A stretch of 64,000 nucleotides of DNA from NCBI GenBank assembly GCA_017472255.1, contig JAFUQU010000014.1, positions 357,845 to 421,844 on the forward strand, in the 5' to 3' direction. The position numbers and the translations under genes are program-made. This document shows, piece by piece, positions 2,871 through 23,136 of the stretch. The DNA is from Clostridia bacterium (GTDB taxonomy: Bacteria; Bacillota; Clostridia; Oscillospirales; CAG-272). The notes under the pieces are model-generated. The model had not been told where the DNA came from, ran no database searches, and worked only from the letters and a program-made list of their open reading frames with translations. Each line of letters opens with the position of its first letter. Position 1 is the first letter of the stretch.

Positions 2871-3299
2871 ATGAAACGAGTATATGTGAATGAAAAATGG
2901 TGTCTGGGTTGTCACCTCTGCGAATATTACTGCGCTTTTGCCAATTCGGGCGAAATCGACATGGTGAAAGCCCTGAAGGGTGTTACCCTCAATCCCCGCA
3001 TCCGGGTGGAGGGAGACAACAACATCAGCTTCGCCGTCAGCTGCCGTCACTGTACCGATCCGCTCTGCGTGAAAAGCTGCATTGCGGGCGCGTTATCGAA
3101 AACGGACGGCGTAATCTGCATCGATCAGACCAAGTGCGTGGGATGTTATACCTGTGTGGCAGCTTGTCCCTATGGTGCGATCATGCCGGGCGATAACGGC
3201 GTGATGCAGAAATGCGCCCTGTGTCTGGACAATGCTTCCGGCAGCCCGGCCTGCGTGAAGGGATGTCCCAACAAAGCCATTGTTTTCGAGGAGAGATGA
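2871..3299 (+). CDS. 4Fe-4S dicluster ferredoxin-domain protein
   Basis: Several CxxCxxCxxxCP motifs in 142 aa; sits inside the GOGAT operon. Confidence 0.75.
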   Translation: MKRVYVNEKWCLGCHLCEYYCAFANSGEIDMVKALKGVTLNPRIRVEGDNNISFAVSCRHCTDPLCVKSCIAGALSKTDGVICIDQTKCVGCYTCVAACPYGAIMPGDNGVMQKCALCLDNASGSPACVKGCPNKAIVFEER

Positions 3300-3302
3300 G
3301 CT

Positions 3303-4538
3303 ATGACCGACCATTATGTTATTATCGGAAATTCGGCGGCCGCTGTGGGCTGCATCGAGGGCATCCGTGCCACGGATAAGCAGGGCAGGATTACGCTGAT
3401 TTCCGACGAACCGTATCATACCTATTCCCGCCCGCTGATCTCCTACCTGCTGTGGGGAAAGACCAGCGAGGAACGCATGAAATACCGCCCGGACGATTTT
3501 TATGAAAAGAATGGTGTCAGGACTTTGCTGGGACATCGTGCTCTGGCCATCGACAACGTGATGAAGCGCGTTACGCTGGACGATGGGGAGCAGATTCCCT
3601 ACGAGAAGCTGCTGGTGGCGACCGGCTCCAAGCCCTTTGTGCCGCCGATGAACGGTCTTGACCTTGTGACAAAGAAGTTCAGCTTCATGAAGCTGGATGA
3701 CGCCCACGCGCTGGCCGATGCGCTGACTGCCGATGCCCGGGTGCTGGTTATCGGCGCAGGTCTGATCGGTCTGAAATGCGTGGAGGGCATCAAGGATCGC
3801 TGCGGTCAGATTACGGTGGTAGACCTCGCGCCCCGTATTCTGCCCAGTATTCTGGATGAAAACGGCTCCGCTCTGGTGCAGAAATTCCTTGAGGGGAAGG
3901 GCATACGCTTTATCCTTTCGGACAGCGTTGACAGCTTTGAAGCCAACGCGGCCACGCTGAAAAGCGGCAGAAAGCTGGATTTCGACGTGCTGGTGCTGGC
4001 AGTGGGCGTCCGCCCGAACACCGAGCTGGTGTCGGCGGCAGGCGGCGAAGTGAATCGCGGCATCGTGACCAACCTGCGCTGCGAGACGACGCTGGACGAT
4101 GTGTATGCCGCCGGTGACTGTGCGCTTTCCCATGATATCACGCTGGATCAGGATCGCATTCTGGCGCTGCTGCCCAACGCTTATATGCAGGGTTACGCGG
4201 CCGGTGTGAACATGGCGGGCGGCGACGCGAAGTGGGATCGCGCCATGGCGATGAATGCCATCGGTTTCTTCGGTCTGCATATTATCACCGCCGGAAGCTA
4301 TACAGGCCATGTTTATGAAAAGAGCACCGAGGACAGCTACAAGAAGCTGTTCTATCAGGACAACAAATTAAAGGGTTTTATTTTGATCGGCGATGTGATG
4401 CGCGCCGGAATTTATACGTCGCTCATCCGTGAGGAGACGCCGCTTGATACGGTGGACTTTGAGCTGATCTGCGAAAAGCCGCAGCTGATGGCATTCACGC
4501 GGCATGAACGTGCGAAACAATTGAGCACGTCGCATTGA
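3303..4538 (+). CDS. FAD/NAD(P)-binding pyridine nucleotide-disulfide oxidoreductase (GltD-like electron donor subunit)
   Basis: N-terminal GNSAAAVG dinucleotide fold and a second Rossmann fold (VIGAGLIGLKC); operon context. Confidence 0.75.
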   Translation: MTDHYVIIGNSAAAVGCIEGIRATDKQGRITLISDEPYHTYSRPLISYLLWGKTSEERMKYRPDDFYEKNGVRTLLGHRALAIDNVMKRVTLDDGEQIPYEKLLVATGSKPFVPPMNGLDLVTKKFSFMKLDDAHALADALTADARVLVIGAGLIGLKCVEGIKDRCGQITVVDLAPRILPSILDENGSALVQKFLEGKGIRFILSDSVDSFEANAATLKSGRKLDFDVLVLAVGVRPNTELVSAAGGEVNRGIVTNLRCETTLDDVYAAGDCALSHDITLDQDRILALLPNAYMQGYAAGVNMAGGDAKWDRAMAMNAIGFFGLHIITAGSYTGHVYEKSTEDSYKKLFYQDNKLKGFILIGDVMRAGIYTSLIREETPLDTVDFELICEKPQLMAFTRHERAKQLSTSH

Positions 4539-7287: not shown

Positions 7288-8619
7288 TTATCGCAGCAGG
7301 AGCGCGGCGGCAAGCTGAACGGCTTCGGCGCGGGTCAGGGGCGCGTAGGCGTTGAGAACGCCGTCGGAACCGCGCATAATGCCCGCTTCCATCAGACCGA
7401 ACATTGCGGAGCGTGCCCATGCGGGGATGCTTTCCGCGTCCGCGGGGGCGCTGACGCTCAGAGTATCCGAACCGCGGATGCCGGTGATTCTGGAGAGGAT
7501 GACGGCTGCTTCACAGCGGGTGATCTGATTGTTGGGATAGAAGCGCAGACCGTCCTCCGCCTCCACGCCGCTGATGATGCCGATGGCGTCGGCAGCGGCT
7601 ACGCTGCCTTTATAGGCTTCGGGGATATCGGCGTCATCAGCGAAGCCGGTATTCAATGTGGAGAAGCCGGTATATCCGGCGGCGTTCATGACCAGCGACA
7701 GGAATTCAGCCCGGCTGATACCCTCGTTTGGGTAGAAGTTGGCTGTGCCCTCCACGCCGCCTGCTGTTTCGACGGTCAGCGCCATGCCGGCTTGTTCCAG
7801 CACGCCACTGCGCAGGCAGGTAATCAAAGCGCTTTCTGCCCAGTGACCGTCCATATCGGCGATAACCTCGCCAGCTTCGGGCATATCCACGCGCAGACGG
7901 ACTTTCAGCGTATTGGAGCGTCCGCCGTAAAAGTCAACGGCGCGCACCTCAAAGCTGTCAACGCCCTCGTAATCGTCGAGGGGCGTGTAAACGTAGTAGC
8001 CGCGCTCACGGTCGGTGAGGGTTACGCTGCCGTGGGCAGGCTGAGAAACCAGCTCAAAGCGCACGCTGTCGCCGTCCGGGTCTGCCATTTCGATGCTGCC
8101 CGAGCAGGCTACGCCCGAGTAAGCAAAGACTTCTGCGGCTGATTGGGTGAGGATGGGGGCGCTGTTCACGTAAGTCAGGGCATACAGCGCACATTCATAG
8201 CTGACGCCGCTGCCGGTGGTGAAGCCGAAGGAAGTATCCAGCTCGTCACTGCCGTAGGGGACGAAGCGCAGGGAGGACAGGTTCTTTTTATTGATGGTCT
8301 GTCCTACGGCTACGTCCTGGCTGCCGAGGCGGAGCACGCCCAGCTCACGGTCGGGCAGGGAAGTGATTGTGATTCTGCTCACCGATTCCACGCCCAGCGC
8401 TTCGGCGAAATCGTCGGCGGTAAAGCTGATATCGGTGTTGGCGAGACCGGTTTTGACCATCGGTTCGTCGGCGGCGATGATGGCCAGCGCGGGTGAAAGG
8501 GGAGCGTCCGCTGCCAGTGCCGGGATGGTGAGTGATACAGCCAGCAGGGCGGCGGTAATGGGGATTATGTGTTTCATTGAAGTTACCTCCGTTTGGGATA
8601 TAGGATGATGCTGCACCAC
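7288..8619 (-). CDS. Cell-surface protein with signal peptide, Ig/cadherin-like region and three C-terminal SLH domains
   Basis: N-terminal signal peptide (AALLAVSLTIPALA); three SLH repeats (FYPNEGISRAEF, FYPNNQITRCEAAVIL, LTRAEAVQLAA). Confidence 0.75.
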   Translation of the reverse strand: MVQHHPISQTEVTSMKHIIPITAALLAVSLTIPALAADAPLSPALAIIAADEPMVKTGLANTDISFTADDFAEALGVESVSRITITSLPDRELGVLRLGSQDVAVGQTINKKNLSSLRFVPYGSDELDTSFGFTTGSGVSYECALYALTYVNSAPILTQSAAEVFAYSGVACSGSIEMADPDGDSVRFELVSQPAHGSVTLTDRERGYYVYTPLDDYEGVDSFEVRAVDFYGGRSNTLKVRLRVDMPEAGEVIADMDGHWAESALITCLRSGVLEQAGMALTVETAGGVEGTANFYPNEGISRAEFLSLVMNAAGYTGFSTLNTGFADDADIPEAYKGSVAAADAIGIISGVEAEDGLRFYPNNQITRCEAAVILSRITGIRGSDTLSVSAPADAESIPAWARSAMFGLMEAGIMRGSDGVLNAYAPLTRAEAVQLAAALLLR

Positions 8620-9937: not shown

Positions 9938-10345
9938 ATGGAAACAATCATTGCTGTAGTGGCATATCTGTTTGTTATCTTTGGGTTCCTGTTTATCCCT
10001 TCATTCATTGCATTCGTTTTATGCTATTGTTTTGAGTGGAAGTTCAAACGTGCTGTTCGGGTGCTGCTGGCTGCGTTGGCTATAGAGACAGGGATGATTG
10101 TGTATCTGTCCCAGCATCCGATTTTCATTTGCCCCGGAGAATATCAGGATTATGTGGAGCGTAATGGCGCGCCCACAAGGAGAGGAATATATTCATCGCA
10201 AATTCCGCTCTTTGTGATAGCGAATCAGGTAGAGTATGCTGGAGATGGTGAAGTTCATGTGCGGACATGGTATTTCCCACTTGGCGCTGTGACCATGGGC
10301 GTCGGCAGAGATGGATATTTTCAACTTGAAGGTTTATTTGAATAG
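9938..10345 (+). CDS. Hypothetical small membrane protein (2 predicted TM helices)
   Basis: ORF in a locally AT-richer stretch; hydrophobic N-terminus; no recognisable domain. Confidence 0.35.
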   Translation: METIIAVVAYLFVIFGFLFIPSFIAFVLCYCFEWKFKRAVRVLLAALAIETGMIVYLSQHPIFICPGEYQDYVERNGAPTRRGIYSSQIPLFVIANQVEYAGDGEVHVRTWYFPLGAVTMGVGRDGYFQLEGLFE

Positions 10346-10379
10346 CGAAAAGGACGCGCATCGCGCGTCCTTTTCGTAT

Positions 10380-11090
10380 TTACTCCAGTGCCTGACCGGC
10401 TCTTGCCGGGTCGTAGCCGCAGACCTCCGCCATCAGATCGATCAGCGTCCGTCCATCCTCTGCCAGCGCGTCGAGGGTAGTATCCGCGCGCAGCTTGCCC
10501 CGGTGAAGAATCACTGCCCGATCGAGAAAACCCGAGATTTCGCTGATTTCGTGGGTGGCGATGAGCAGTGTCTCGCCGTCCAGCATGGATGCCGCCAGCT
10601 TCAGAAAATCCCGGCGGGTGAAGATGTCCTTGCCCAGAAAAGGCTCATCCATCAGCAGATATTTCGCTCCCTTGGAGAAGCCGATGACTGTTTCCAGCTT
10701 GGCACGCTGTCCCTTGGACATGGCATAGGCTTTTTTGTCTAGCGGCAGATCAAAGAACTTCATCAGCCGGCAGAATCGCTCGCCGTCAAAGCGGGGATAG
10801 AATTTTTCCAGAAACCGCATATGTCCCCGCCCGTCCAGCGACGGAAACCAGCTGCCCGCTTCCGAGATATAGGCGATATCCGCCAGCATCTTTTCGGGCG
10901 GCTGACCGTCGATGGTGACGCTGCCGTTGGTGGGAGCGATCAGCCCGGCGATAATCCGCAGCAGCGTGGATTTGCCCGCGCCGTTGACGCCCAGCACACC
11001 TACTACTTCGCCGTCCGGGATGGTCAGCTTGATGCCCTCCAAGCCGATGGATTCCTTATAATATTTGTCAAGCGCATGACAGATGATCAT
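10380..11090 (-). CDS. ABC transporter ATP-binding protein (YtrB-like, ABC-2 subfamily)
   Basis: Walker A GVNGAGKST, signature MSKGQRAKL, Walker B LLMDEP; start overlaps the stop of the upstream paralog (ATGA). Confidence 0.85.
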   Translation of the reverse strand: MIICHALDKYYKESIGLEGIKLTIPDGEVVGVLGVNGAGKSTLLRIIAGLIAPTNGSVTIDGQPPEKMLADIAYISEAGSWFPSLDGRGHMRFLEKFYPRFDGERFCRLMKFFDLPLDKKAYAMSKGQRAKLETVIGFSKGAKYLLMDEPFLGKDIFTRRDFLKLAASMLDGETLLIATHEISEISGFLDRAVILHRGKLRADTTLDALAEDGRTLIDLMAEVCGYDPARAGQALE

Positions 11091-12595
11091 GGTTCCTTGC
11101 TCCTTTCAAGAAAAAGCTGCACATATTGATAGTCTCCGCTGCCGCCGGAAAAGCTGGCGGTGAAGGGATGAAGATTCATAGCCACCCCGCCGTTTTTGTC
11201 CATAACCGAAACCGAGACCACGTAACCGATGGCGCCGCCTCCGTACTCGGTCAGCAGTCCGGCGTAGGTTTCGCCGGAGACGCCTCCGGCATCCACACGA
11301 AGCCAGGTCTTATAATCGGACAAATCCAGCACATACAACCGTTCGCCGTCCCACAGCGCGTCCCAGGAGGGGCGCAGGTATTCGACCAGCCGATAGTCGG
11401 TGTAAACACCGATTGGATATTCCCACGCCGTATCGCCGTATGCCAGCAGCTTGCCTGTGTCCGGTGAAAGGGCGGCGTAATACGCATGGTCGGCGGTCAG
11501 CACGCGGAAGACGGCGGCGTTATCGTCGGCCATGATGGCGGAGGTGTCCAAGATTTCGTCGTCAAGCGTCCACGTCATGCCCGGCTTGCCCGATAATCCC
11601 TCGGCGAGGACGGACAGGTGCAGGCTGTCCCCGTCCCGGATTGCGCAGAGGGCTCGTCCGTGGTCGGCGCTGAACCACTCCAGCGTTCCGGCGGTGTCCT
11701 CGGGGAAGGTATAGATACGTTTGGTGCCGATATAGTCGTCCGTTGTATCAATTTCCGTGACCCAGACCGCCGCGCCTCCAATCCGGTCGGCACACAGCAG
11801 GTCAACGCTGGTCAGCCGATAACTGCGGCTTCCGGTTCTCTCCGACCAGAGAAAGTCTGTCGGATCGATTTCCTCACCGTTGATGGTGATGTAGACGGTT
11901 GTCGTATAATCATACGCCAGCGGATCGGGTTCTTCGAGAAAGTTGTCGGTACGCTGGGGCGGGAACCATACCCGGATATCGCCGTATTCCTCAGCAGTGA
12001 TGGTGCGCGGCTCACCCAGCGGGGTGGCATTTTTGTAACCGTAGGATGCCAGTTCGCCCAGCGAATGAAACCCATGCAGCGCAAGCTGAACGTTCACCTT
12101 GTCGATGGTGTAGCATTCCGTCCAGTAGGTACCGGCAACACCGTCGATGACACCTTCCAGAATGGGGTAGTCCGGGTTGAGATCGCCGACTCGCGTCATT
12201 TTTGCATCCTCCGGAATGAATGCGATGATGAATGGCTTCTGACCGATAGCATAGCCACGGATGTTGTTGAATAAGCTCCAGACACCCTCTGTCAGATGTC
12301 CGCAGTAATCTGCGGCCGCTTGCCCGCCCAGCTGACGGACGATGACGGTTTCGCCGCCGGTGACGCGGAATTCACAGCCCCAATCGTTGCCGGTGTCGCT
12401 ATCCCGGCTGTATGGGTCATAGTAGTATGGGTCATAGAAGCTGCCCCGGATGGCGATGCTGTCCAGCAGTCCGCCGCAGTCATCCAGCGTGAGGGTAGTG
12501 AAGCTGCGATAACCCGCACCGAACAGTCCGCACACCAGCCCCAACACAATTGCAATTGCAATCAGCGGGAGAAAAGCCTGAATATTTTGTCTCAT
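11087..12595 (-). CDS. Exported or membrane-anchored protein of unknown family, paralog 1 of 3
   Basis: N-terminal TM anchor, DDCGGLLD motif, conserved LGEPRTITAEEYG, GKLLAYG, DALWDGERLYVLD, and C-terminal YGGGAIGYVVSVSVMDKNGGVAMNLHP motifs shared with the two upstream genes. Confidence 0.6.
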   Translation of the reverse strand: MRQNIQAFLPLIAIAIVLGLVCGLFGAGYRSFTTLTLDDCGGLLDSIAIRGSFYDPYYYDPYSRDSDTGNDWGCEFRVTGGETVIVRQLGGQAAADYCGHLTEGVWSLFNNIRGYAIGQKPFIIAFIPEDAKMTRVGDLNPDYPILEGVIDGVAGTYWTECYTIDKVNVQLALHGFHSLGELASYGYKNATPLGEPRTITAEEYGDIRVWFPPQRTDNFLEEPDPLAYDYTTTVYITINGEEIDPTDFLWSERTGSRSYRLTSVDLLCADRIGGAAVWVTEIDTTDDYIGTKRIYTFPEDTAGTLEWFSADHGRALCAIRDGDSLHLSVLAEGLSGKPGMTWTLDDEILDTSAIMADDNAAVFRVLTADHAYYAALSPDTGKLLAYGDTAWEYPIGVYTDYRLVEYLRPSWDALWDGERLYVLDLSDYKTWLRVDAGGVSGETYAGLLTEYGGGAIGYVVSVSVMDKNGGVAMNLHPFTASFSGGSGDYQYVQLFLERSKEP

Positions 12596-14055
12596 GATTC
12601 GTTTTCTACCTCAAAATATAGCTGCACATATTGACCGCTGCCGCTGGAGCCGGAAAAATTGGCGGTGATGGGGTGCAGTCCCATGGCGATTTCGCCGTCC
12701 TTATCCATGACCGAAATCGAAACCGCATGACCAATGACGCCGCCGCCATAAAGCGCCAATCGTTCCTGATTATCGGTGTTTGTTGAATAAAGCTGGCATT
12801 CATAGTCCGAGCGGTCGAGGACATACAGCCGCTCGCCGTCCCAGAGGGCGTCGAAGCCGGGGACGCTGCTGTTGTAGTTCAGCAATCGGCTGTCGAATGC
12901 AAAGGGTGTGCTTCCGTATGCCAGCAGCTTGCCGGAGGCGGGGTCAACGGCGGCGTAGGTGACGGTGTCGTAGTTGGTGGATATCCGCATACAGACCGCG
13001 CCGTTTGAGACGAGAGAGGCGACGGATGCGTCTTCAACGCCGTACAGGGTCAGAACCCTGACCGGGCTTTTCCCGCAGGACAGGGCGCGCAGCTCCAGCA
13101 TATCGCCGTCCCGAACCGCACAGACGGCGGCGTTTTCTCCGTTGGTGTAAATCCCCGCCAGCGACAGCTTTTCGTTATCCTCAAAGGCGGCAATCCGTTC
13201 GGTGGATATGACCTTCCTGTCCGCATCCAGCGTCGTGACCCACACCGACGCGCTGCCGATATTGTCCGTGGTCAGCGCGTCCACATGGGTGACGGCATAG
13301 CCGCCCTTCGTTTTCTCGGCAAAGACTGCGCCATGCGGCAGCTCGCTGATGTCGCCGATTGAGAACCACGCCGTCCATTCGGTGTTATAGGAGACGTAGG
13401 GGTAGCCGCTCTTCGGCACGGTTTTGCTGTAGTCGAAGTATGGAGCCATCCAGACAGTCAGCTTGCCGTATTCCTCGGCGGTGACGGTGCGCGGCTCGCC
13501 CAGCAGAATCAGATCAAGCTGCTCGGGGGTGTATTCGATCAGGTTTTCCAGCGAACCACGGGACAGGGCGTATTGATACGTCAGCTTGTCGGCGGTGTAG
13601 CCCTTGGCGCGGAAGCCGTCGAGGACGGTTTCGCCGTCCCTGTCCACGCTGCCGTAGCAATAGGGCAGATCGGGGTAAACATTGTCGATGGGGGTCAGCG
13701 TGGCGTCGTCCGGAACGGTAACGACGGCGATAAGACTGCGATTAAGGATGTCGCGGACGGTGGAACTGCTCCAGATGGCAGAATTCATGCCGTAATAGGA
13801 TTTCAGCTCCTTCCACTGCACATGAGTTTCTGCTTTAACCGTCTCCCCGGCGTTCAGCTTGAAGCTGCATCCGTAACTGCCGGACTGGTAAAATCGTCCG
13901 CTGACGGCGAGACCGTCCAACAGCCCGCCGCAGTCATCGAAGGCAACGGTAAAGGCGTAGTCACTGTAGCCCACTGCCAGCAGACTTACGGTCAACACCA
14001 TGACCAGAATCAGGGCAAGAATCGGAAAAAGTGCGTGAAGCCAGTATTTTTTCAT
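12592..14055 (-). CDS. Exported or membrane-anchored protein of unknown family, paralog 2 of 3
   Basis: Same architecture and motifs as 11087-12595; start chosen at MKKYW (RBS AAGGAGA upstream); alternative ATG at 14061. Confidence 0.6.
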   Translation of the reverse strand: MKKYWLHALFPILALILVMVLTVSLLAVGYSDYAFTVAFDDCGGLLDGLAVSGRFYQSGSYGCSFKLNAGETVKAETHVQWKELKSYYGMNSAIWSSSTVRDILNRSLIAVVTVPDDATLTPIDNVYPDLPYCYGSVDRDGETVLDGFRAKGYTADKLTYQYALSRGSLENLIEYTPEQLDLILLGEPRTVTAEEYGKLTVWMAPYFDYSKTVPKSGYPYVSYNTEWTAWFSIGDISELPHGAVFAEKTKGGYAVTHVDALTTDNIGSASVWVTTLDADRKVISTERIAAFEDNEKLSLAGIYTNGENAAVCAVRDGDMLELRALSCGKSPVRVLTLYGVEDASVASLVSNGAVCMRISTNYDTVTYAAVDPASGKLLAYGSTPFAFDSRLLNYNSSVPGFDALWDGERLYVLDRSDYECQLYSTNTDNQERLALYGGGVIGHAVSISVMDKDGEIAMGLHPITANFSGSSGSGQYVQLYFEVENES

Positions 14056-14066
14056 GAACATTCTCC

Positions 14067-15486
14067 TTAATCGGCGAAGCGGACGATGAACCGCTGGGCT
14101 GAGCCGTTATTGCCCGAATAGAGGGTGTTGAGCGGATGGAGGTTCATGGACACTTCGCCGTCGGCGTCCATCACCGACAAAGTGACGAAGTATCCGGTCA
14201 TGCCGCCGCCGTATCGTGTGAGCATATCCTGATCGCTCCATTCGGGAGTGGAGGGGTAATCATACTGCAGGGCGGTGGAGAAGTGGTATTCGGCGTTGTC
14301 GAGGACGTAGAGCCTGTCATGAAGCCACAGCGCGTCGAAATCCTGTTCCGTTCCGGTCAGCGTGTAGCCCCGGTGGTAAACGTTGGTCAGCTCGGTTTTG
14401 CCGTGAGCCAGCAGGCTGCCGTCGGTCATGGACAGGGCGAAATACTGCGCCTCCTCCTCGTAGGACACGCCGCCGTACATCCGCCGGACACGGAAGCAGG
14501 CCGCGCCGTTTGAGAGGACCGCACGAACCGTGGGGGCGTAATACTCCTCGACGGCGGTGGGAATGTTGTACGGCTCACAGGGCTGACCGTCGGCAAAGAT
14601 TTGCAGGATGATAGCGTTGTCCGAACGGACGGCGGTGAGCAGATTCTTGCCTTCAGCGCTGAACCAGAGTAAGGTTTGCGGGCTGTCGTAGTTGATTTCG
14701 GTCAGCAGCCAGCTGCCGACCGGTGTGGTTCCCACGATATCGGTGACGCGCACATCGGCGTGCAGGCAGTCGTGGCTGTCCCAGAGGTAGCAGCGCATAC
14801 CGCTGCCGGTGTATTCGATGTAGGCGATGCGGTCTTCAAAGGAGGTATCATCGGTGTAAAAAGGCTTTCCTGCGGCAAAGCTCTGAATCTTGCTGTAATC
14901 GACGGCAACAGTGTGACCGCCGCCCTCCCAATCCGGGAGTATATCCAGCGCGTAGCGGATGTACAGCGGCTGTCCCTCATCATCCTCGGTGAGTGTACGT
15001 GGTTCGGCGAGAGGGATTTCCTTCTTTTTTGTACTGTCTGTCAGATAGTATTGATATGTGACGGCAGACACCTGATAATAGTCATCATAGTAGAGATTTC
15101 CCTCATAGGAAAAAGCTATAGGCAGATTGTACGCGGCGGGATCGATCTGCGTCAGCTCTGCACCCTCCGGCAGAGTGATGCGGCATTCCAGAAACCAGCC
15201 GGAAGCGCCGTTTGCTGACAGCACGCCGTCGGTGTAGAACTTCGATTCGTCGGACATGACTGCGGCGTGGGCGCTGCCGCCGAAGGAAACAGTGGTGTCA
15301 TAGCGCAGCTTGTCGAAGCTGTCGTAATATTCCAGCTCCAGGGACACATTCTCCAGTCCATCCACGGCGGTGAGATAAGCGGGGAAGGCGTAGCTTGTGT
15401 AGCCGACAGTTATGCAGCCGATAAACAGCGCCAGAGTCAGCGCCGCTGTCAGAATCGGCAGGGACGCGGTGAACAGATGCTTCATG
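14067..15486 (-). CDS. Exported or membrane-anchored protein of unknown family, paralog 3 of 3 (most divergent)
   Basis: Signal/anchor MKHLFTASLPILTAALTLALFIGC; shares LAEPRTLTEDDEG, DALWLHDRLYVLD, YGGGMTGYFVTLSVMDADGEVSMNLHP; track ORF trimmed by 101 codons to the first plausible start. Confidence 0.55.
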
Positions 15487-15496
15487 GCGGTAAGCC

Positions 15497-16264
15497 TCAC
15501 AGGGTATCGCCGCGGCGGATAAGGCTGCAGGCTTTCCATCCGGCGATGGCTGCTAAAACAAGCGCGGCGAAGATCAGTACGGGAATCACATCCGCCGTTC
15601 CCAAAGCGCAGAGCAGGATGAAGCCTGCGGCAAGAGCAAGTCCCGACCAGCGGCGGGCCATCACGGACAGGGCGGCACAGAGGGTGACGGCGGGTGCGCC
15701 AAGGTGGACGGTCAGCATAAAGAGCCATTCTCCGGCGGTGCGGGGAAGGACGAAGTGCAGGAATTCGTCCCGCAGGAATGCCAGCCATACGGCGTTCGGT
15801 TCCACATAGACGGTGTAAGTCACCCTCTCACGCAGGGAGGTCAGCGCGGCGTAAAGCTGCTCATAAGCCAGCCGGACGCTGATATGCTGTGCGGCACTCA
15901 GCAGCAGAAGGGTCATCACGCCGCCGACGAGATAAGCGATGAACACCCAAACCCGGCTCACCGGAACCGTGTACAGGCTGAGCACCGATCGGGAGATCAG
16001 ATAGCGGCGAAGCACTGACGCGGTCAACAGCGCCATCAGCAGCACGACGGCGGCGACATAGACGCCCGCGAAGCCGCTTTGATCGATCATTGTGGAAAAG
16101 AGGACATAGCGCAGTTCCAGCGAACCTGCGCTGTCGAGCTGCAAGGCAAACATGAGCTGCTGTACGACAATCAGCGCGGCGGAGACGGCGAGCCCGGCGA
16201 TCAGCAGATCGCGCATAAGAAATTCGCAGAGCAGGAGCGGACGCTTGATGGTTTCGTTTTTCAT
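15497..16264 (-). CDS. Polytopic membrane protein (about 6 TM; possible ABC-2-type permease partner)
   Basis: Hydrophobic segments throughout; lies between the GntR regulator and the paralog triplet; start at MKNETIKRP. Confidence 0.5.
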   Translation of the reverse strand: MKNETIKRPLLLCEFLMRDLLIAGLAVSAALIVVQQLMFALQLDSAGSLELRYVLFSTMIDQSGFAGVYVAAVVLLMALLTASVLRRYLISRSVLSLYTVPVSRVWVFIAYLVGGVMTLLLLSAAQHISVRLAYEQLYAALTSLRERVTYTVYVEPNAVWLAFLRDEFLHFVLPRTAGEWLFMLTVHLGAPAVTLCAALSVMARRWSGLALAAGFILLCALGTADVIPVLIFAALVLAAIAGWKACSLIRRGDTL

Positions 16265-16326
16265 GGTAATTTCCAGCCTTTCGTGGGTAAAGTGTGTGGT
16301 TTGATTCATACGGTGTGTCGGCGGAT

Positions 16327-16707
16327 TCAATCCTTCCAGTTGTCGCCCAGCAGCTGTACCGCCGAGCGGAAGTCCAGCCCCAGGTCGCGCAGACGGTTGA
16401 CATAAATCTGCGCCGCCTCATGCGCCAGTCCTTCGCGGATGGCGTCCACCGTTTCATCGGACGCGCAGAGGACGCTGCCCGAGCCTGGCTGACTGGCGAG
16501 AATGCCCTCATCCTCTAATATTTTATATGCTTTCTGAACGGTGTTTGGGTTGATTTCCAGCTGAACCGCCAGCTCCCGCCTGCTGGGCAGGGGATCGCCC
16601 CGGTGCAGCTGACCAGCTGCCAGCCGTGATTTTACCTGCCGCACGATGGACAGGTAGACCGGCTCACTGCCGTCCGGACGCTCGAATTCAATGCCGCTGT
16701 GTGCCAT
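16327..16707 (-). CDS. GntR-family transcriptional regulator (YtrA-like, short)
   Basis: Winged HTH: LPSRRELAVQLEINPNTVQKAYKILEDEGIL; 126 aa; first gene of the minus-strand operon. Confidence 0.8.
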   Translation of the reverse strand: MAHSGIEFERPDGSEPVYLSIVRQVKSRLAAGQLHRGDPLPSRRELAVQLEINPNTVQKAYKILEDEGILASQPGSGSVLCASDETVDAIREGLAHEAAQIYVNRLRDLGLDFRSAVQLLGDNWKD

Positions 16708-16805
16708 GCGCTCACCTCTCTTGTAACTGTATTATATCAGCAATACGGTTCCTTGTCAATAGGTTTGCAGAATTTTTCTAAGGAAATTTTTTCTGCGCAA
16801 CGGTG

Positions 16806-16834
16806 TTGACAAGACGAATGAAGCGTGATATACT
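16806..16834 (+). promoter_or_regulatory. Promoter of the SGNH hydrolase gene (TTGACA-17-TATACT)
   Basis: TTGACA 16806-16811; TATACT 16829-16834; RBS AAAGGAG before ATG 16865. Confidence 0.55.
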
Positions 16835-16864
16835 ATTAAAAAATCACATGAAAGGAGCAGCTTC

Positions 16865-17983
16865 ATGTTCAAAAAATATGTTTCCAACACGGCTGCCGGT
16901 ACCGGCACCAACTTCATTCTGCTTTATGACAAGCCCACACGTCTGCGCGCGCGGATTTACTTCCGACCGGAGGTCTTCGGCGATTTTAACTGGCGCTTTT
17001 ACTACGTCAATTCGGTGAACAGCACCTTCGGCGATGGAGATGTTGCGCAGCGCAATCGCAGCGGCGGAAGCTGGCGCATTCTGTCTGCGGCGATTGCCGA
17101 CGGCGGCGTCATCGATGGTCCGGAGGTTGTTCCCGGCGAGCTGGAGCTGTTGCCGGTTACATACGACGGCAGCACATCCCGGAACGTTCAGCCTGATGAG
17201 GCGTTCTGGAGCGATCCGGTGAAGCTGAATATCCCCGACGGACACTACATCGCCTTTGAATGGGAGCTGGAGGGCGATGCAATCCCCTGCACGCCGGACA
17301 GTCGTACCGCCGCGTTCATCGATATGGGCGGAGGCTGGACAACCGGTGATCACTTCGACTGCCCCATGCCGGCGCTGATCGGCTGCGACAGACCGTACAA
17401 AAAGCGTGTCGCCTTTGTGGGCGATTCGATCACCCAGGGCTGCGGCACGCGCAAGAATTATTATGAGAACTGGGTTCATCGTATTGCCGCCATGCTCCAG
17501 CCCGATTATGCCGTTTGGAATCTGGGGCTGGGATTTGCGCGCTGTGATGACGCGGCGACCGACGGCTGTTGGCTGAATAAGGTGAAGCAGAGCGATGTGG
17601 TGGTTGTCACCTGCGGCACCAACGATCTGCTGCGGGGTCCGCTGGGATTGGGGCGTCCTTCCACTGCGGGCGAGCTGTGCGCCAATTTGCAGAAAATCGT
17701 AAAGGCGTTGAAAGAAGCGGGGGCAGAGGTTATTCTGTCCATCATTCCACCCTTCTCCTACAGTGAAAAATCTGTGCTGGAATGGCGGGCATTCAATCTG
17801 GCGATTCCGTCCATCGCGGCTCAATACGGCTGCCGCGTGTTCGATCTGGACGGCGCCATCGAGGGAGACAGCAATCTGGACTGCCGCTATCCCTACGGCG
17901 CTCATCCGGATGGCGAGGGCGGACGGGTCATTGCGGAAAAATTCTATGAGACTTTCCATATTGACAGCGGATGGAATCTGTAA
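16865..17983 (+). CDS. SGNH/GDSL hydrolase (carbohydrate esterase-like) with N-terminal beta-sandwich domain
   Basis: Block I VAFVGDSITQG, block III CGTNDL, catalytic DxxH near C-terminus (HPDGEGG). Confidence 0.7.
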   Translation: MFKKYVSNTAAGTGTNFILLYDKPTRLRARIYFRPEVFGDFNWRFYYVNSVNSTFGDGDVAQRNRSGGSWRILSAAIADGGVIDGPEVVPGELELLPVTYDGSTSRNVQPDEAFWSDPVKLNIPDGHYIAFEWELEGDAIPCTPDSRTAAFIDMGGGWTTGDHFDCPMPALIGCDRPYKKRVAFVGDSITQGCGTRKNYYENWVHRIAAMLQPDYAVWNLGLGFARCDDAATDGCWLNKVKQSDVVVVTCGTNDLLRGPLGLGRPSTAGELCANLQKIVKALKEAGAEVILSIIPPFSYSEKSVLEWRAFNLAIPSIAAQYGCRVFDLDGAIEGDSNLDCRYPYGAHPDGEGGRVIAEKFYETFHIDSGWNL

Positions 17984-17995
17984 GGGGGAATTTCT

Positions 17996-18613
17996 ATGGT
18001 ATACTATATCGATTTTCAGCCGAAGACCACCTCACGCGTCCACGAGGCAACCGAGTGGTCGATCACTTATACATACAACGCGCCCGACACAACACTGCCC
18101 CGTGTGCTGCTCATTGGCGATTCAATCTGCAACGCCTATCAGGCGCGGGTGAGAGACAAACTGGACGGGAAGGTGAACGTTTCCTTCTGGGCAAGCTCCA
18201 AGTGCGTCACCGACCGGGAGTATTTCCGGGAGCTGGATTTCATGCTGGGCGCGTATCAATATGACGTTGTGACCTTCAACAACGGTCTGCACAGCCTTGG
18301 AACCAACCGCGCCGAGTGGGAAGCCGCGTACACCGCTGTATTGCGCTTCATCCGCGCAAAGCTGCCCGACGCGAAGCTGCTGCTGGTTTCCACCACGCCG
18401 CTGAAGGATTCACGGCTGACCGCCGTCTCCGCCGAGCTGGCTGATTATGCGAAGAAGACCGCCGTCTCACAGGGGCTGGGCTTTATCAATCTGTTTGCCG
18501 CCTTCATGCCGCTGGATCGGGAGCTGTACTGGTCGGACACCTACCACTTCAAGCCCTCCGCGGTGAATATGCAGGCGGAGATCATTGCCGGACGGGTCAG
18601 GGAAGCGTTGTAA
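17996..18613 (+). CDS. SGNH/GDSL hydrolase
   Basis: VLLIGDSICNAY block I; GNGLHSL block; DTYHF catalytic His. Confidence 0.7.
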   Translation: MVYYIDFQPKTTSRVHEATEWSITYTYNAPDTTLPRVLLIGDSICNAYQARVRDKLDGKVNVSFWASSKCVTDREYFRELDFMLGAYQYDVVTFNNGLHSLGTNRAEWEAAYTAVLRFIRAKLPDAKLLLVSTTPLKDSRLTAVSAELADYAKKTAVSQGLGFINLFAAFMPLDRELYWSDTYHFKPSAVNMQAEIIAGRVREAL

Positions 18614-20370: not shown

Positions 20371-21162
20371 ATGACGGTTGATTGCTTTGAAAAATGCTAT
20401 CACTACCGCAAGGACAGCAGCTATGTGTTTGAGGGACACCGCCATTCCGGGCGGAACGGCTACGAGGTGAATATCGTGCTGGCGGGCTGTCTGGAGGTGA
20501 CTTGTGGAGCGTCGGTTTTCCGGCTGAGGGCGGGAGAGCTGGGCGTCTGGCACACCGACTGCTTCCACTGCAACCGGACGGCGGCGGAGGGAATGACCGA
20601 ATTCCTGTCCATCCATTTCGATTCCGCCGACCGGGGTCAGGCGGAGGAACCGGCGGTCTACCATCTGTCGGATAGCAGCCGGACATTGGTGGGGCTGATC
20701 GACGAGGAGGCGGGCGGCAATGCCGTGGACGGAAACTCCGGGAAAATCAACCGTGCGGCGCTGGATCTTTTGGAAGCGCTGCTGCTGCGTTTGGAAGGAA
20801 TGGGCAGCGTTCCCGAGCGGACGATGACCGGCAATCCGGCGATTTACCATCGGGCGGTGACGGTGATGGGCGATCATCTTCACGAGCCGCTGACTGTGCC
20901 GATGATCGCCAGACAGTGCGGCGTCTGCGTCACGGCGCTGAAAAACGCCTTTGCCGAATGTGCTGGCAAGGGCGTGAAGGCTTATTTTGTGGAGATGAAG
21001 ATGGAAGCTGCCAGACAGATGCTGCTCGATGGCGCGGGAGTGGACGAGATTGCGGCGAAGCTGGGCTTTTCGTCGGCGTCCTATTTCTCCCAGTGCTTCC
21101 GCCGGCTCAACGGCTGCACAGCCAGTGAATACAGGTCGAACGCCGGACGCGTGCGACCATGA
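20371..21162 (+). CDS. AraC-family transcriptional regulator (cupin + HTH)
   Basis: C-terminal AraC HTH (IAAKLGFSSASYFSQCFRRLNGCTASEYR); RBS AGGAGGG before ATG 20371. Confidence 0.75.
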   Translation: MTVDCFEKCYHYRKDSSYVFEGHRHSGRNGYEVNIVLAGCLEVTCGASVFRLRAGELGVWHTDCFHCNRTAAEGMTEFLSIHFDSADRGQAEEPAVYHLSDSSRTLVGLIDEEAGGNAVDGNSGKINRAALDLLEALLLRLEGMGSVPERTMTGNPAIYHRAVTVMGDHLHEPLTVPMIARQCGVCVTALKNAFAECAGKGVKAYFVEMKMEAARQMLLDGAGVDEIAAKLGFSSASYFSQCFRRLNGCTASEYRSNAGRVRP

Positions 21163-21202
21163 CGAAAATACGGGGCAGGTGAAATCACCCGCCCCGTTTA
21201 TT

Positions 21203-22042
21203 TTATGCCAGATAAGGTTTGCAGCGTCCGCCGTAGAAATAATGGAAGCAGTTCGGTCTGTCGATCATCTCCCGGGCAAAGATCAGCAGCGCGGGGAAGG
21301 ACGGCGACGGCTGGAAGGTGTAAACCTCCTGCGGCTCATCATCCATTTCCACCGTGGTGATGTGTACGAGCTGATATTTTTTCAGCTTTTCCAGCATCTC
21401 CTTTGCGGCGTCAGCGGAAAGCCCCAGATTCTTCACCAGCAGATTGGGGGTGAAGGCCTTGTTGTGGTCGCGCCGGTTCAGATAGACCAGTGTGTCGAAG
21501 AAGGTTCTGTCTGCCAGATCGGCGAAAAGGGTGGGATAATCAATGCCGTCAAGCAGCGCTTTCCCCATATCGGCGATCTCCGGGACGAGCAGAAAATAGG
21601 ACAGACGCCTGCCCAGCCCCATTTCGGTGTAACCGTTGTCGCGGCGGATGCTGGAGTAGCGCTGCTGACCTTCGTCGATTCCGCTGCACACGTTTGCAAG
21701 CGTATCCTCCGGACGGAGGGGCTGGTCGTACATGGCGCGCTCAATTGTCCAGCACAGCTCAAAGGCGGTGTTGATTCGCTCCTCATGGGGAACGTCCGCC
21801 AGCTTTTTTGCCAGCGCCGTCTCCACGTCGCTGTAGTCGGCGATGCTCCGACCGAACAGGGTGTCGATGGAAACGCCAAAAAAATCGGCGATGCGGGGCA
21901 GCAGCTCGGTATCGGGCAGACCGCCGTTCTCCCATTTGGAGACGGCCTGTGCGGATACGCCCACGAAATTGGCAAGCTCCTCCTGTTTTGTGCCTTTTTC
22001 TTTTCGCAGAGATGCGATGTTGGTTCCGATGTTGTTTGTCAT
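21203..22042 (-). CDS. XRE-family HTH regulator with uncharacterised C-terminal domain
   Basis: N-terminal Cro/C1 HTH (LRKEKGTKQEELANFVGVSAQAVSKWENG). Confidence 0.7.
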   Translation of the reverse strand: MTNNIGTNIASLRKEKGTKQEELANFVGVSAQAVSKWENGGLPDTELLPRIADFFGVSIDTLFGRSIADYSDVETALAKKLADVPHEERINTAFELCWTIERAMYDQPLRPEDTLANVCSGIDEGQQRYSSIRRDNGYTEMGLGRRLSYFLLVPEIADMGKALLDGIDYPTLFADLADRTFFDTLVYLNRRDHNKAFTPNLLVKNLGLSADAAKEMLEKLKKYQLVHITTVEMDDEPQEVYTFQPSPSFPALLIFAREMIDRPNCFHYFYGGRCKPYLA

Positions 22043-22182
22043 GGTTTTACCTCCGGATTTTTTTCTGAACGGTCTTTCAGTGTCTCTATTATATCACAAT
22101 CTCCGGTTGTCTGCAAGGGAGGCGTTTTTGACAAAATCAACTTTAGATTGATGAATAAAACATCAATCAACCCGGAGTTGCA

Positions 22183-23136
22183 TCAGAAGTGCAGACCGCG
22201 GATGGTGCGGATAAGATTATCCGCGTAGTATTTGTGTCCCAGCAGATTGGGATGCACCTTGTCCTCATGCAGCAGCTCCGGCAGATTGGGCATCAGCGTG
22301 AAGCCGTTCACAATCGCGATGTTGGGATATTTCGCGCAGATTTGGCGCACCTTCTCAAGGTTTCCGGGGAGGAAGGCACAGGCATCGTCCGCCCGCCAGA
22401 TGGGGGAAATCACCAGCGTGGGGATGCCGGAATAAAGCCGGTTCAGCGCGGCATAGAAGCGTTCGGCGCGGTCGGCGAAGTCAGCCCCGCCGCAGCCGTT
22501 GGTGCCCAGCGAGACAATAATCTTGTTCGGCGTATAGCCTTCCAGCGGGAGCATATAGCCGTCGTCGTACATCAGTCCGCCAATGGCCTGATCCAGCGAA
22601 TCATAGCCCAGCGTCCGGGTGGTCAGGTTCACGTAACTGCCGCTGGACATCATGGAACCGACATTTTGAGAACCCGCCCCCTGCGTGATGGAATCGCCCA
22701 GCCAGAGCACCTTTGTGCGGCGGCGGGTCGGTGTGAAGCTGCCGTTCAGCGTGAAATTGCGCAGCATAAGGCGGCAGTAGTTGGGAAAGTAAATCTGTAC
22801 CGTTTTCATTCCCGCGGGCAGCTTGCAGGAAAAGTGCCCCTCGGTTATGTCGCCCATGGGGAAGACATGGCAGGGAACGCCGTCCACGCAGACGTCGATG
22901 CTGCCTGTCGAGACGATGTAGTCCAGCTTGTAATCGAAACCGATTTCCGTGGCGTTGGTGCGCAGGTCGGCGTGAACCGCGCCGGTGTGATGGGCGCGGA
23001 CATAGAAAATTTCGACGCTTTTGTAATATTCCATCTGCGCGTCGGTAACGCGGCAGCAGACGGTATAGCCGTCCTCGTCCTTAAACTGATACGCGCCGTG
23101 GATGATGCTTTTCAGCTGCTTGGGTGTGAGAATCAT
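22183..23136 (-). CDS. SGNH/GDSL hydrolase (carbohydrate esterase-like) with N-terminal beta-sandwich
   Basis: KVLWLGDSITQGAG block I; SLGTNG block III; DKVHP catalytic His. Confidence 0.7.
   Translation of the reverse strand: MILTPKQLKSIIHGAYQFKDEDGYTVCCRVTDAQMEYYKSVEIFYVRAHHTGAVHADLRTNATEIGFDYKLDYIVSTGSIDVCVDGVPCHVFPMGDITEGHFSCKLPAGMKTVQIYFPNYCRLMLRNFTLNGSFTPTRRRTKVLWLGDSITQGAGSQNVGSMMSSGSYVNLTTRTLGYDSLDQAIGGLMYDDGYMLPLEGYTPNKIIVSLGTNGCGGADFADRAERFYAALNRLYSGIPTLVISPIWRADDACAFLPGNLEKVRQICAKYPNIAIVNGFTLMPNLPELLHEDKVHPNLLGHKYYADNLIRTIRGLHF

Follow-up and report, generated by a model that had tools for sequence, protein, structure and literature searches.

Six genes on the minus strand

We analysed a window of 64,000 nucleotides (nt) from a Clostridia bacterium (assembly GCA_017472255.1, contig JAFUQU010000014.1), whose minus strand carries six consecutive open reading frames (ORFs) between positions 10380 and 16707. 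They encode a GntR-type regulator, a membrane protein with six predicted transmembrane (TM) segments (the 6-TM protein), three paralogs of a family to which we give the working name X, and an ATP-binding cassette (ABC) ATPase. An earlier account of this stretch, called the sequence-only reading below, had described six such genes, and the ORF list bears out their number and positions.

The regulator gene (16327-16707; 126 amino acids, aa) comes first, followed after a spacer of 62 nt by the gene of the 6-TM protein (15497-16264; about 255 aa). Then, after 11 nt, begins the promoter-proximal X gene, named paralog 3 (14067-15485; 472 aa), whose product has a predicted signal-anchored, all-β ectodomain. 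A spacer of 5 nt leads to paralog 2 (12592-14061; 489 aa; IJ493_04830, with an NCBI start two codons later). The start of paralog 1 (11087-12595; 502 aa; IJ493_04825) overlaps the stop of paralog 2 in the sequence ATGA, and the gene of the ATPase (10380-11090; 236 aa) overlaps the stop of paralog 1 in the same way. These are the only two ATGA junctions, so that translational coupling, previously proposed for all six genes, fits them and not the other three.

Upstream of the regulator gene lies a σ70-type promoter (16731-16759, minus strand) that matches the consensus at 12/12 positions: TTGACA and TATAAT are separated by a 17-nt spacer, and a TG precedes the -10 box. Promoter-like sites inside the operon are weak (9/12). 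At the other end, 10 nt past the stop of the ATPase gene, we found an intrinsic terminator (10348-10370, minus strand), a GC hairpin of the form GGACGCGC-gat-GCGCGTCC followed by TTTT. It is the sole terminator-like site found on the operon strand. Given the compact layout, the promoter and the terminator, the six genes are plausibly co-transcribed from a single promoter to this terminator, in keeping with the earlier description of the operon as one unit.

A four-gene cassette with a variable number of X copies

When we searched 1.84 billion representative proteins with a profile built from the three X paralogs, 14 clusters emerged, three of which are the window's own copies. From the X matches and from homologs of the 6-TM protein we gathered loci in different assemblies, about nine of which are distinct (the window, L001, L002, L003/L004, L005/L009, L006/L007, L008, L010/L011 and L012/L013). 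In every one of them the gene order is GntR, a 6-TM protein of ~250 aa, X and the ABC ATPase. The genes next to the cassette are GDSL and IlvE in the window, GDSL in L001 and L003, SpoVG and a Mur ligase in L006, a topoisomerase and PG_binding proteins in L008 and L010, and a radical-SAM protein and ribosomal protein L19 in L012. This constant order in at least four unrelated neighbourhoods indicates that the four genes travel as one cassette. In L001, L002, L003 and L009 the X gene overlaps that of the 6-TM protein, of the ATPase or both by 4 nt, and none of the recovered loci contains an X homolog outside the cassette. Sequence identity between loci is 54-63% for the ATPase, 45-60% for GntR, 32-39% for the 6-TM protein and 25-35% for X.

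A single X gene is present in seven of the about nine loci, while the window has three and L003 has four. The four tandem X-like genes of L003 (GCA_965342945.1, 6001-10184) encode proteins of 432, 289, 474 and 160 aa; two of these are truncated and retain just the N- and/or C-terminal conserved parts. The amplification in L003 is independent of that in the window. As judged from these loci, the triplication of X is peculiar to the window genome and the conserved cassette has one copy. Hence, where the sequence-only reading had seen a new and triplicated extracytoplasmic component, the novelty stands, as no family matched (see below), and the triplication belongs to this genome.

Paralogs 1 and 2 form a sister pair, both in a distance tree and by pairwise scores. 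Paralog 3 had been taken for a copy in the course of diverging. Its comparison with the single X of the syntenic locus L001 gives E = 5e-55, against 2e-32 with its own neighbour; by sequence, paralog 3 is the ortholog of that single-copy X and is not decaying.

Two scans of the species genomes in GTDB added one further locus, L009, from a metagenome-assembled genome of the Hadza gut; it was found in the second scan and none in the first. Scans of JGI metagenomes yielded no cassette locus, and tblastn against plasmids found none. Word-index protein searches returned the window's own proteins only and are uninformative on distribution. The hosts are uncultured Clostridia, apparently of the gut or rumen; the database entries of the window's proteins give a metagenome-assembled genome of Clostridia, and the sample carries the tag XIEF21-1_SAMN15829959.

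The cassette proteins and their surroundings

The winged-helix domain PF00392 covers residues 18-78 of the regulator (Pfam, 1.4e-14). The best solved relatives of the protein have 113-134 aa (3neu, 4r1h, 3by6 and 4ham), with Lin1836 and Lmo0741 (~125 aa) among them; 2du9 (Cgl2947) is also matched. A very short C-terminal part and a total length of ~120-130 aa define the YtrA subfamily (PMC5080381), to which we assign the regulator on these sequence features, as the sequence-only reading had done. The NCBIfam models of PmtR (1.9e-11) and Rv1152 are matched below their cut-offs.

Upstream of each GntR gene, a -35 box TTGACA is followed by a palindrome whose right arm supplies part of the -10 box TATAAT. 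In all loci with a complete upstream region it takes the form CTGTATTA-N6-TAATACAG and lies over the -10 box; its 7-6-7 core, TGTATTA-N6-TAATACA, is exact and in the same position in L003, L005, L006, L008, L009, L010 and L012. The candidate operator of the window, CCGTATTG-ctgata-TAATACAG (16727-16748, minus strand), is imperfect, with two changes in the left arm. Its core GTATT-N8-AATAC is intact and occurs once in the 64 kb, at 16729-16746, and its right arm overlaps the -10 box. Since the palindrome over the -10 box is conserved though the coding genes have diverged to 45-60% identity, we regard it as a strong footprint of autorepression, through which GntR would bind this site and repress its own operon.

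A second exact copy of TGTATTA-N6-TAATACA is found between the GntR and 6-TM genes of L008 (4949-4968), L010 (6964-6983) and L011 (1432-1451), where it sits just 5' of the ribosome-binding site. The 62-nt spacer of the window contains none.

The ATPase matches PF00005 (6e-22) and consists of the nucleotide-binding domain only, which agrees with the earlier description of an ABC-2 ATPase free of a fused permease. Its top NCBIfam models are drrA (3e-30) and PmtA (7e-29), and a lantibiotic-protection ABC model is matched at 2e-25; the latter two matches are below the model cut-offs. The best solved relatives are the first nucleotide-binding domain (NBD1) of ABCA1/4/7, Rv1218c, TM0544, NosF, LptB and TarH. 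These similarities place the protein in the ABC-2/DrrA/ABCA (type V-VI) class. Reading by eye, we recognised the motifs GVNGAGKST, MSKGQ, LLMDEP and ATHE, as well as an atypical SEAG at the Q-loop position. The ATPases of the window, L001, L003, L006, L009, L010 and L012 all carry (S/T)EAG (CEG in L006) at the site that a Q-loop glutamine would normally occupy, and the same seven proteins have the signature MSKGQ/LSRGQ and the D-loop FLGKD (also read by eye).

The three X proteins are clearly paralogous, their similarity being far above what chance would give: paralog 1 shares 41% identity with paralog 2 and 32% with paralog 3, and even this last and most distant pair gives a BLASTP E-value of 2e-32. 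The motif blocks once thought common to all three are exact only in the two promoter-distal copies, paralogs 1 and 2. In paralog 3 they are degenerate and read TAVDGLEN, LAEPRTLTEDDEG, GSLLAHG, DALWLHDRLYVLD and YGGGMTGYFVTLSVMD.

Each X paralog is acidic and has one N-terminal hydrophobic helix by hydropathy, the anchor that the sequence-only reading had noticed. The hydrophobic stretch comprises 20-23 residues and lacks a conserved Cys as well as any evident cleavage site; by eye, we found neither a lipobox Cys nor a short h-region followed by an AxA site. Given this long stretch, the absence of a conserved Cys and a single modelled helix at residues 3-33, X is more likely a type-II (N-in) signal-anchored protein than a lipoprotein or a cleaved secreted protein.

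No X paralog matches a family of Pfam, NCBIfam, PADLOC or PHROGs, and Pfam and NCBIfam at E <= 1 gave just one meaningless match (0.18). The family profile has no sequence match in the PDB, nor does any paralog match the profiles of known ABC partners (GldG/ABC_transp_aux, DUF4340, MCE/MlaD, LptC, LanI and substrate-binding proteins). The paralogs had already been suspected to fall outside known families, and these searches agree. We discarded two groups of matches: Fab heavy chains in the PDB (E ~1e-4 with paralog 2), which are spurious and vanished with the family profile, and Cas6 in PADLOC (E 0.01-0.04), which is noise.

Structure prediction with AlphaFold2 from an alignment of the three sequences reached a predicted local distance difference test (pLDDT) of 58 and a predicted template modelling score (pTM) of 0.59. 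With thirteen sequences, paralog 2 reached a pLDDT of 66 and a pTM of 0.68, and 5/5 models agree. The model consists of a helix at residues 3-33, then about 35 β-strands. β-Propellers are the only fold matches, with 4-12% identity and TM-scores near 0.2: acylaminoacyl-peptidase (5l8s/1ve6), WD40, neuraminidase, BamB (4hdj) and EUBREC_1955 (3s25). No propeller family of Pfam is matched, and self-comparison of the X profile detected no internal (blade) repeats. With modest confidence, the modelled ectodomain is β-propeller-like, and the specific propeller family cannot be named.

Conservation in X is concentrated at both ends. One conserved part is the TM helix, whose outer end bears a conserved Pro and a GY motif; another is the first hairpin (DDCGGLL...GET), and the third comprises the C-terminal ~90 residues, which include FDALWDGERLYVLD and YGGG...VMDK. 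Residues 83-400 are much more variable.

For the 6-TM protein, the ATG at 16264 (255 aa) is the start that aligns with nine homologs. A mechanical ORF begins at the TTG at 16330, and the NCBI product has 270 aa (P0015); the extra N-terminal residues of this annotation have no counterpart in the homologs. Family-averaged hydropathy and the positive-inside rule predict six hydrophobic segments, the number given by the sequence-only reading, with both termini inside. Conservation peaks in the predicted cytoplasmic loop between TM2 and TM3 (residues 86-110, RRWxGSKSxxTLxxLPVxRxW). The external loop of ~50 residues between TM3 and TM4 contains another conserved stretch, EPNAxWxAFxRxxFLxxxLP.

Like X, the 6-TM protein belongs to an orphan family: none of the eight members scanned has a match in Pfam, NCBIfam, PADLOC or PHROGs, and the family profile has none among PDB sequences. 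A match to DUF6709 (0.12, in 1/8 members) was dismissed as noise. ABC membrane domains carry a coupling helix in the cytoplasmic loop after TM2. The conserved TM2-TM3 loop is found at this very place, and no cassette protein is better conserved than the ATPase; together these points fit the 6-TM protein as the membrane partner of the ATPase. The ATPase needs such a partner and the operon encodes no other multi-pass protein, so that the 6-TM protein is the sole candidate and probably acts as the membrane domain of an ABC machine. That this orphan protein is the only candidate membrane domain is a point that the sequence-only reading did not make.

Around the operon, two genes of GDSL/SGNH hydrolases (372 and 205 aa; 16806-18613, plus strand) diverge from it, with an 11/12 promoter at 16806-16834; neither product has an obvious signal peptide. 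We rejected them as part of the cassette, because they are syntenic in the window, L001 and L003 only and are absent from the other loci. The gene at 7288-8619 (minus strand) encodes a surface protein that combines SLH and bacterial Ig (Big_9/cadherin-like) domains and indicates an S-layer-type envelope of the host. Two ORFs of about 400 aa each, at 21029-22228 (plus strand) and 3093-4310 (minus strand), are without a Pfam match; the latter overlaps a plus-strand ORF at 3303-4538 and may not be a real gene. An ORF of 135 aa converges on the operon (9938-10345, plus strand) and has hydrophobic N-terminal segments and no Pfam match. As the terminator at 10348-10370 is flanked by AAAA, it may also terminate this ORF, and the two units appear to share it as a bidirectional terminator. 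Scans for Rfam families and tRNA genes returned nothing in the window.

Interpretation and comparison with known systems

From the gene content of the cassette, its operator, the class of the ATPase and the predicted topologies, we infer that the cassette encodes an autorepressed ABC machine whose extracytoplasmic subunit is X and which expels or extracts a substrate; for this reading, regulatory frame included, we judge the chances to be about even. A GntR dimer would bind the 8-6-8 palindrome at the -10 box and switch off its own operon, until a signal derived from the envelope or the membrane releases it. The ABC-2-class ATPase would dock on the 6-TM protein via the conserved cytoplasmic TM2-TM3 loop. 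X would join the complex through its conserved TM helix, juxtamembrane hairpin and C-terminal segment, forming an extracytoplasmic head. ATP hydrolysis could then expel a membrane-associated amphipathic compound, or change the conformation of X at the surface. The variable middle of X would serve as a specificity surface, and the three paralogs of the window may constitute alternative or hetero-oligomeric heads on one motor.

Several points weigh against such a machine. Pfam at E <= 10, with eight members searched, links no ABC permease family to the 6-TM protein, and hhalign of its profile against E. coli YadH, YbhR and YbhS gave probabilities <1%. The sole pairing with YadH falls in the TM2-TM3 loop (TLxxLPVSR against EELLVAPVP); it is not significant, and suggestive at most. 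TM3 and TM4 flank the largest external loop, which departs from the usual ABC-2 layout. Expression and complex formation are predictions from the sequence, a substrate and an inducing signal are postulated, and function is debated even for the model system ytrGABCDEF (PMC12772383; PMC8060467).

A distinctly less probable reading, by analogy with FtsEX and MacB, is that the ATPase and the 6-TM protein transport nothing and would instead use ATP to switch X, which would control a cell-wall enzyme or another surface partner. The large extracytoplasmic X with its conserved membrane-proximal parts is consistent with this, as are the lack of a conserved substrate-related gene beside the cassette and the PG_binding_1 proteins that adjoin it in L010 and L011. 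For YtrBCDEF, others have proposed FtsX-like functions in cell-wall homeostasis that do not involve transport (PMC8060467; PMC12772383). However, Pfam and NCBIfam reveal no FtsX, MacB_PCD or hydrolase-activator domain, no partner enzyme is conserved beside the cassette, and the PG_binding neighbours occur in one lineage only. The ATPase, moreover, resembles lipid and drug exporters most closely, and not FtsE.

Slightly behind it in probability comes self-protection against membrane-active peptides, in which X would capture a bacteriocin or host peptide for expulsion by the ABC pump, in the manner of LanFEG with LanI, and the paralogs would widen the range. The ATPase matches the models of a lantibiotic-protection ABC protein (2e-25) and of PmtA, which exports phenol-soluble modulins (7e-29), in both cases below cut-offs. 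The fast-evolving middle of X and its recurrent tandem amplification (three copies in the window, four in L003) would suit a surface engaged in an arms race, and the apparent gut or rumen origin of the hosts would suit it as well. Yet X is unlike LanI, NisI and SpaI and has no lipobox, no bacteriocin genes are found nearby, and analogy is the whole basis of the proposal. LanFEG systems, besides, are usually controlled by two-component systems and not by a YtrA-type repressor.

It is very improbable that the X proteins are independent binding proteins or enzymes of the surface, linked to an unrelated small ABC system by nothing more than a common transcript: the complex is a prediction and many secreted enzymes and lectins have propeller folds, but in the recovered loci X always lies between the 6-TM and ABC genes, often with 4-nt overlaps, and no homolog was found outside the cassette, with just 14 clusters among 1.84 billion proteins. 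We rank substrate expulsion first, followed by mechanotransmission, peptide immunity and mere co-location; sequence cannot decide among the first three.

Firmicutes very commonly carry small YtrA-type GntR/ABC cassettes, which are poorly understood even in model organisms. Here, a standard motor and repressor are paired with two families that the libraries do not recognise. One of them, X, is a large, fast-evolving protein with a predicted surface location, and at least two independent events have amplified its gene. If X is indeed a transporter subunit, it would widen the known range of extracytoplasmic ABC partners. The cassette would also provide a compact four-gene system in which to study the signals and the function of YtrA-type cassettes. 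It is extremely rare, which limits its impact: just 14 clusters of sequences turned up among 1.84 billion, and all of them come from uncultured Clostridia.

The closest regulatory parallel is pmtR-pmtABCD of S. aureus, where PmtR is a characterised YtrA-type repressor of the adjacent ABC exporter and is released by the exporter's substrate (PMC5080381). Its regulatory logic (PMC5080381) is the same as that proposed for the window cassette: a small YtrA-type GntR gene comes first, autoregulation from one promoter is presumed, and the ATPase is of the same class. Pmt differs in having two ATPases, two recognisable ABC-2 permeases and no large extracytoplasmic protein. Here, a single ATPase and an unclassified 6-TM protein are accompanied by one to three X proteins, and the window proteins score far under the equivalog cut-offs (350 and 200 bits).

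The ytrGABCDEF operon of B. subtilis likewise combines a YtrA repressor with an ABC system that has an extracytoplasmic component, and it is linked to envelope homeostasis (PMC8060467; PMC12772383). It encodes two ATPases, two permeases and YtrF, with MacB-like periplasmic and FtsX-like domains (PMC8060467). The window has one ATPase, one 6-TM protein and no match to FtsX or MacB_PCD, and the ATPase gene comes last. The resemblance to ytrABCDEF noted in the sequence-only reading thus holds for the pairing of a YtrA-type regulator with an ABC system and does not extend further, since there is a single ATPase and no YtrF. Judging by these comparisons, the cassette is not a homolog of ytrBCDEF, and its membrane and surface parts are unrelated to those of Pmt and Ytr.

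In MlaFEDB, the Mce transporters of actinobacteria and LptB2FGC, an ABC ATPase is combined with a multi-pass protein and a bitopic protein that has an N-terminal TM helix and a β-rich ectodomain, and in Mce operons the bitopic partner is present as tandem paralogs. The likeness is an analogy of design only, with LptB among the solved relatives of the ATPase. The cassette has no MCE, LptC or LptF/G domain, the predicted X ectodomain is propeller-like rather than an MCE barrel or a β-jellyroll, and the hosts are Clostridia. More speculatively, and in our view rather improbably, the 6-TM protein and X may form an undescribed type of ABC machine instead of a divergent ABC-2 exporter, with a membrane-domain fold of its own and an obligatory bitopic propeller partner whose TM helix is part of the transporter. 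Tandem paralogs would then act as hetero-oligomeric or interchangeable heads, much as MlaD compares with six Mce paralogs. Set against these known systems, the regulatory logic and the ATPase class of the cassette are already familiar, and what it adds are two orphan envelope families.

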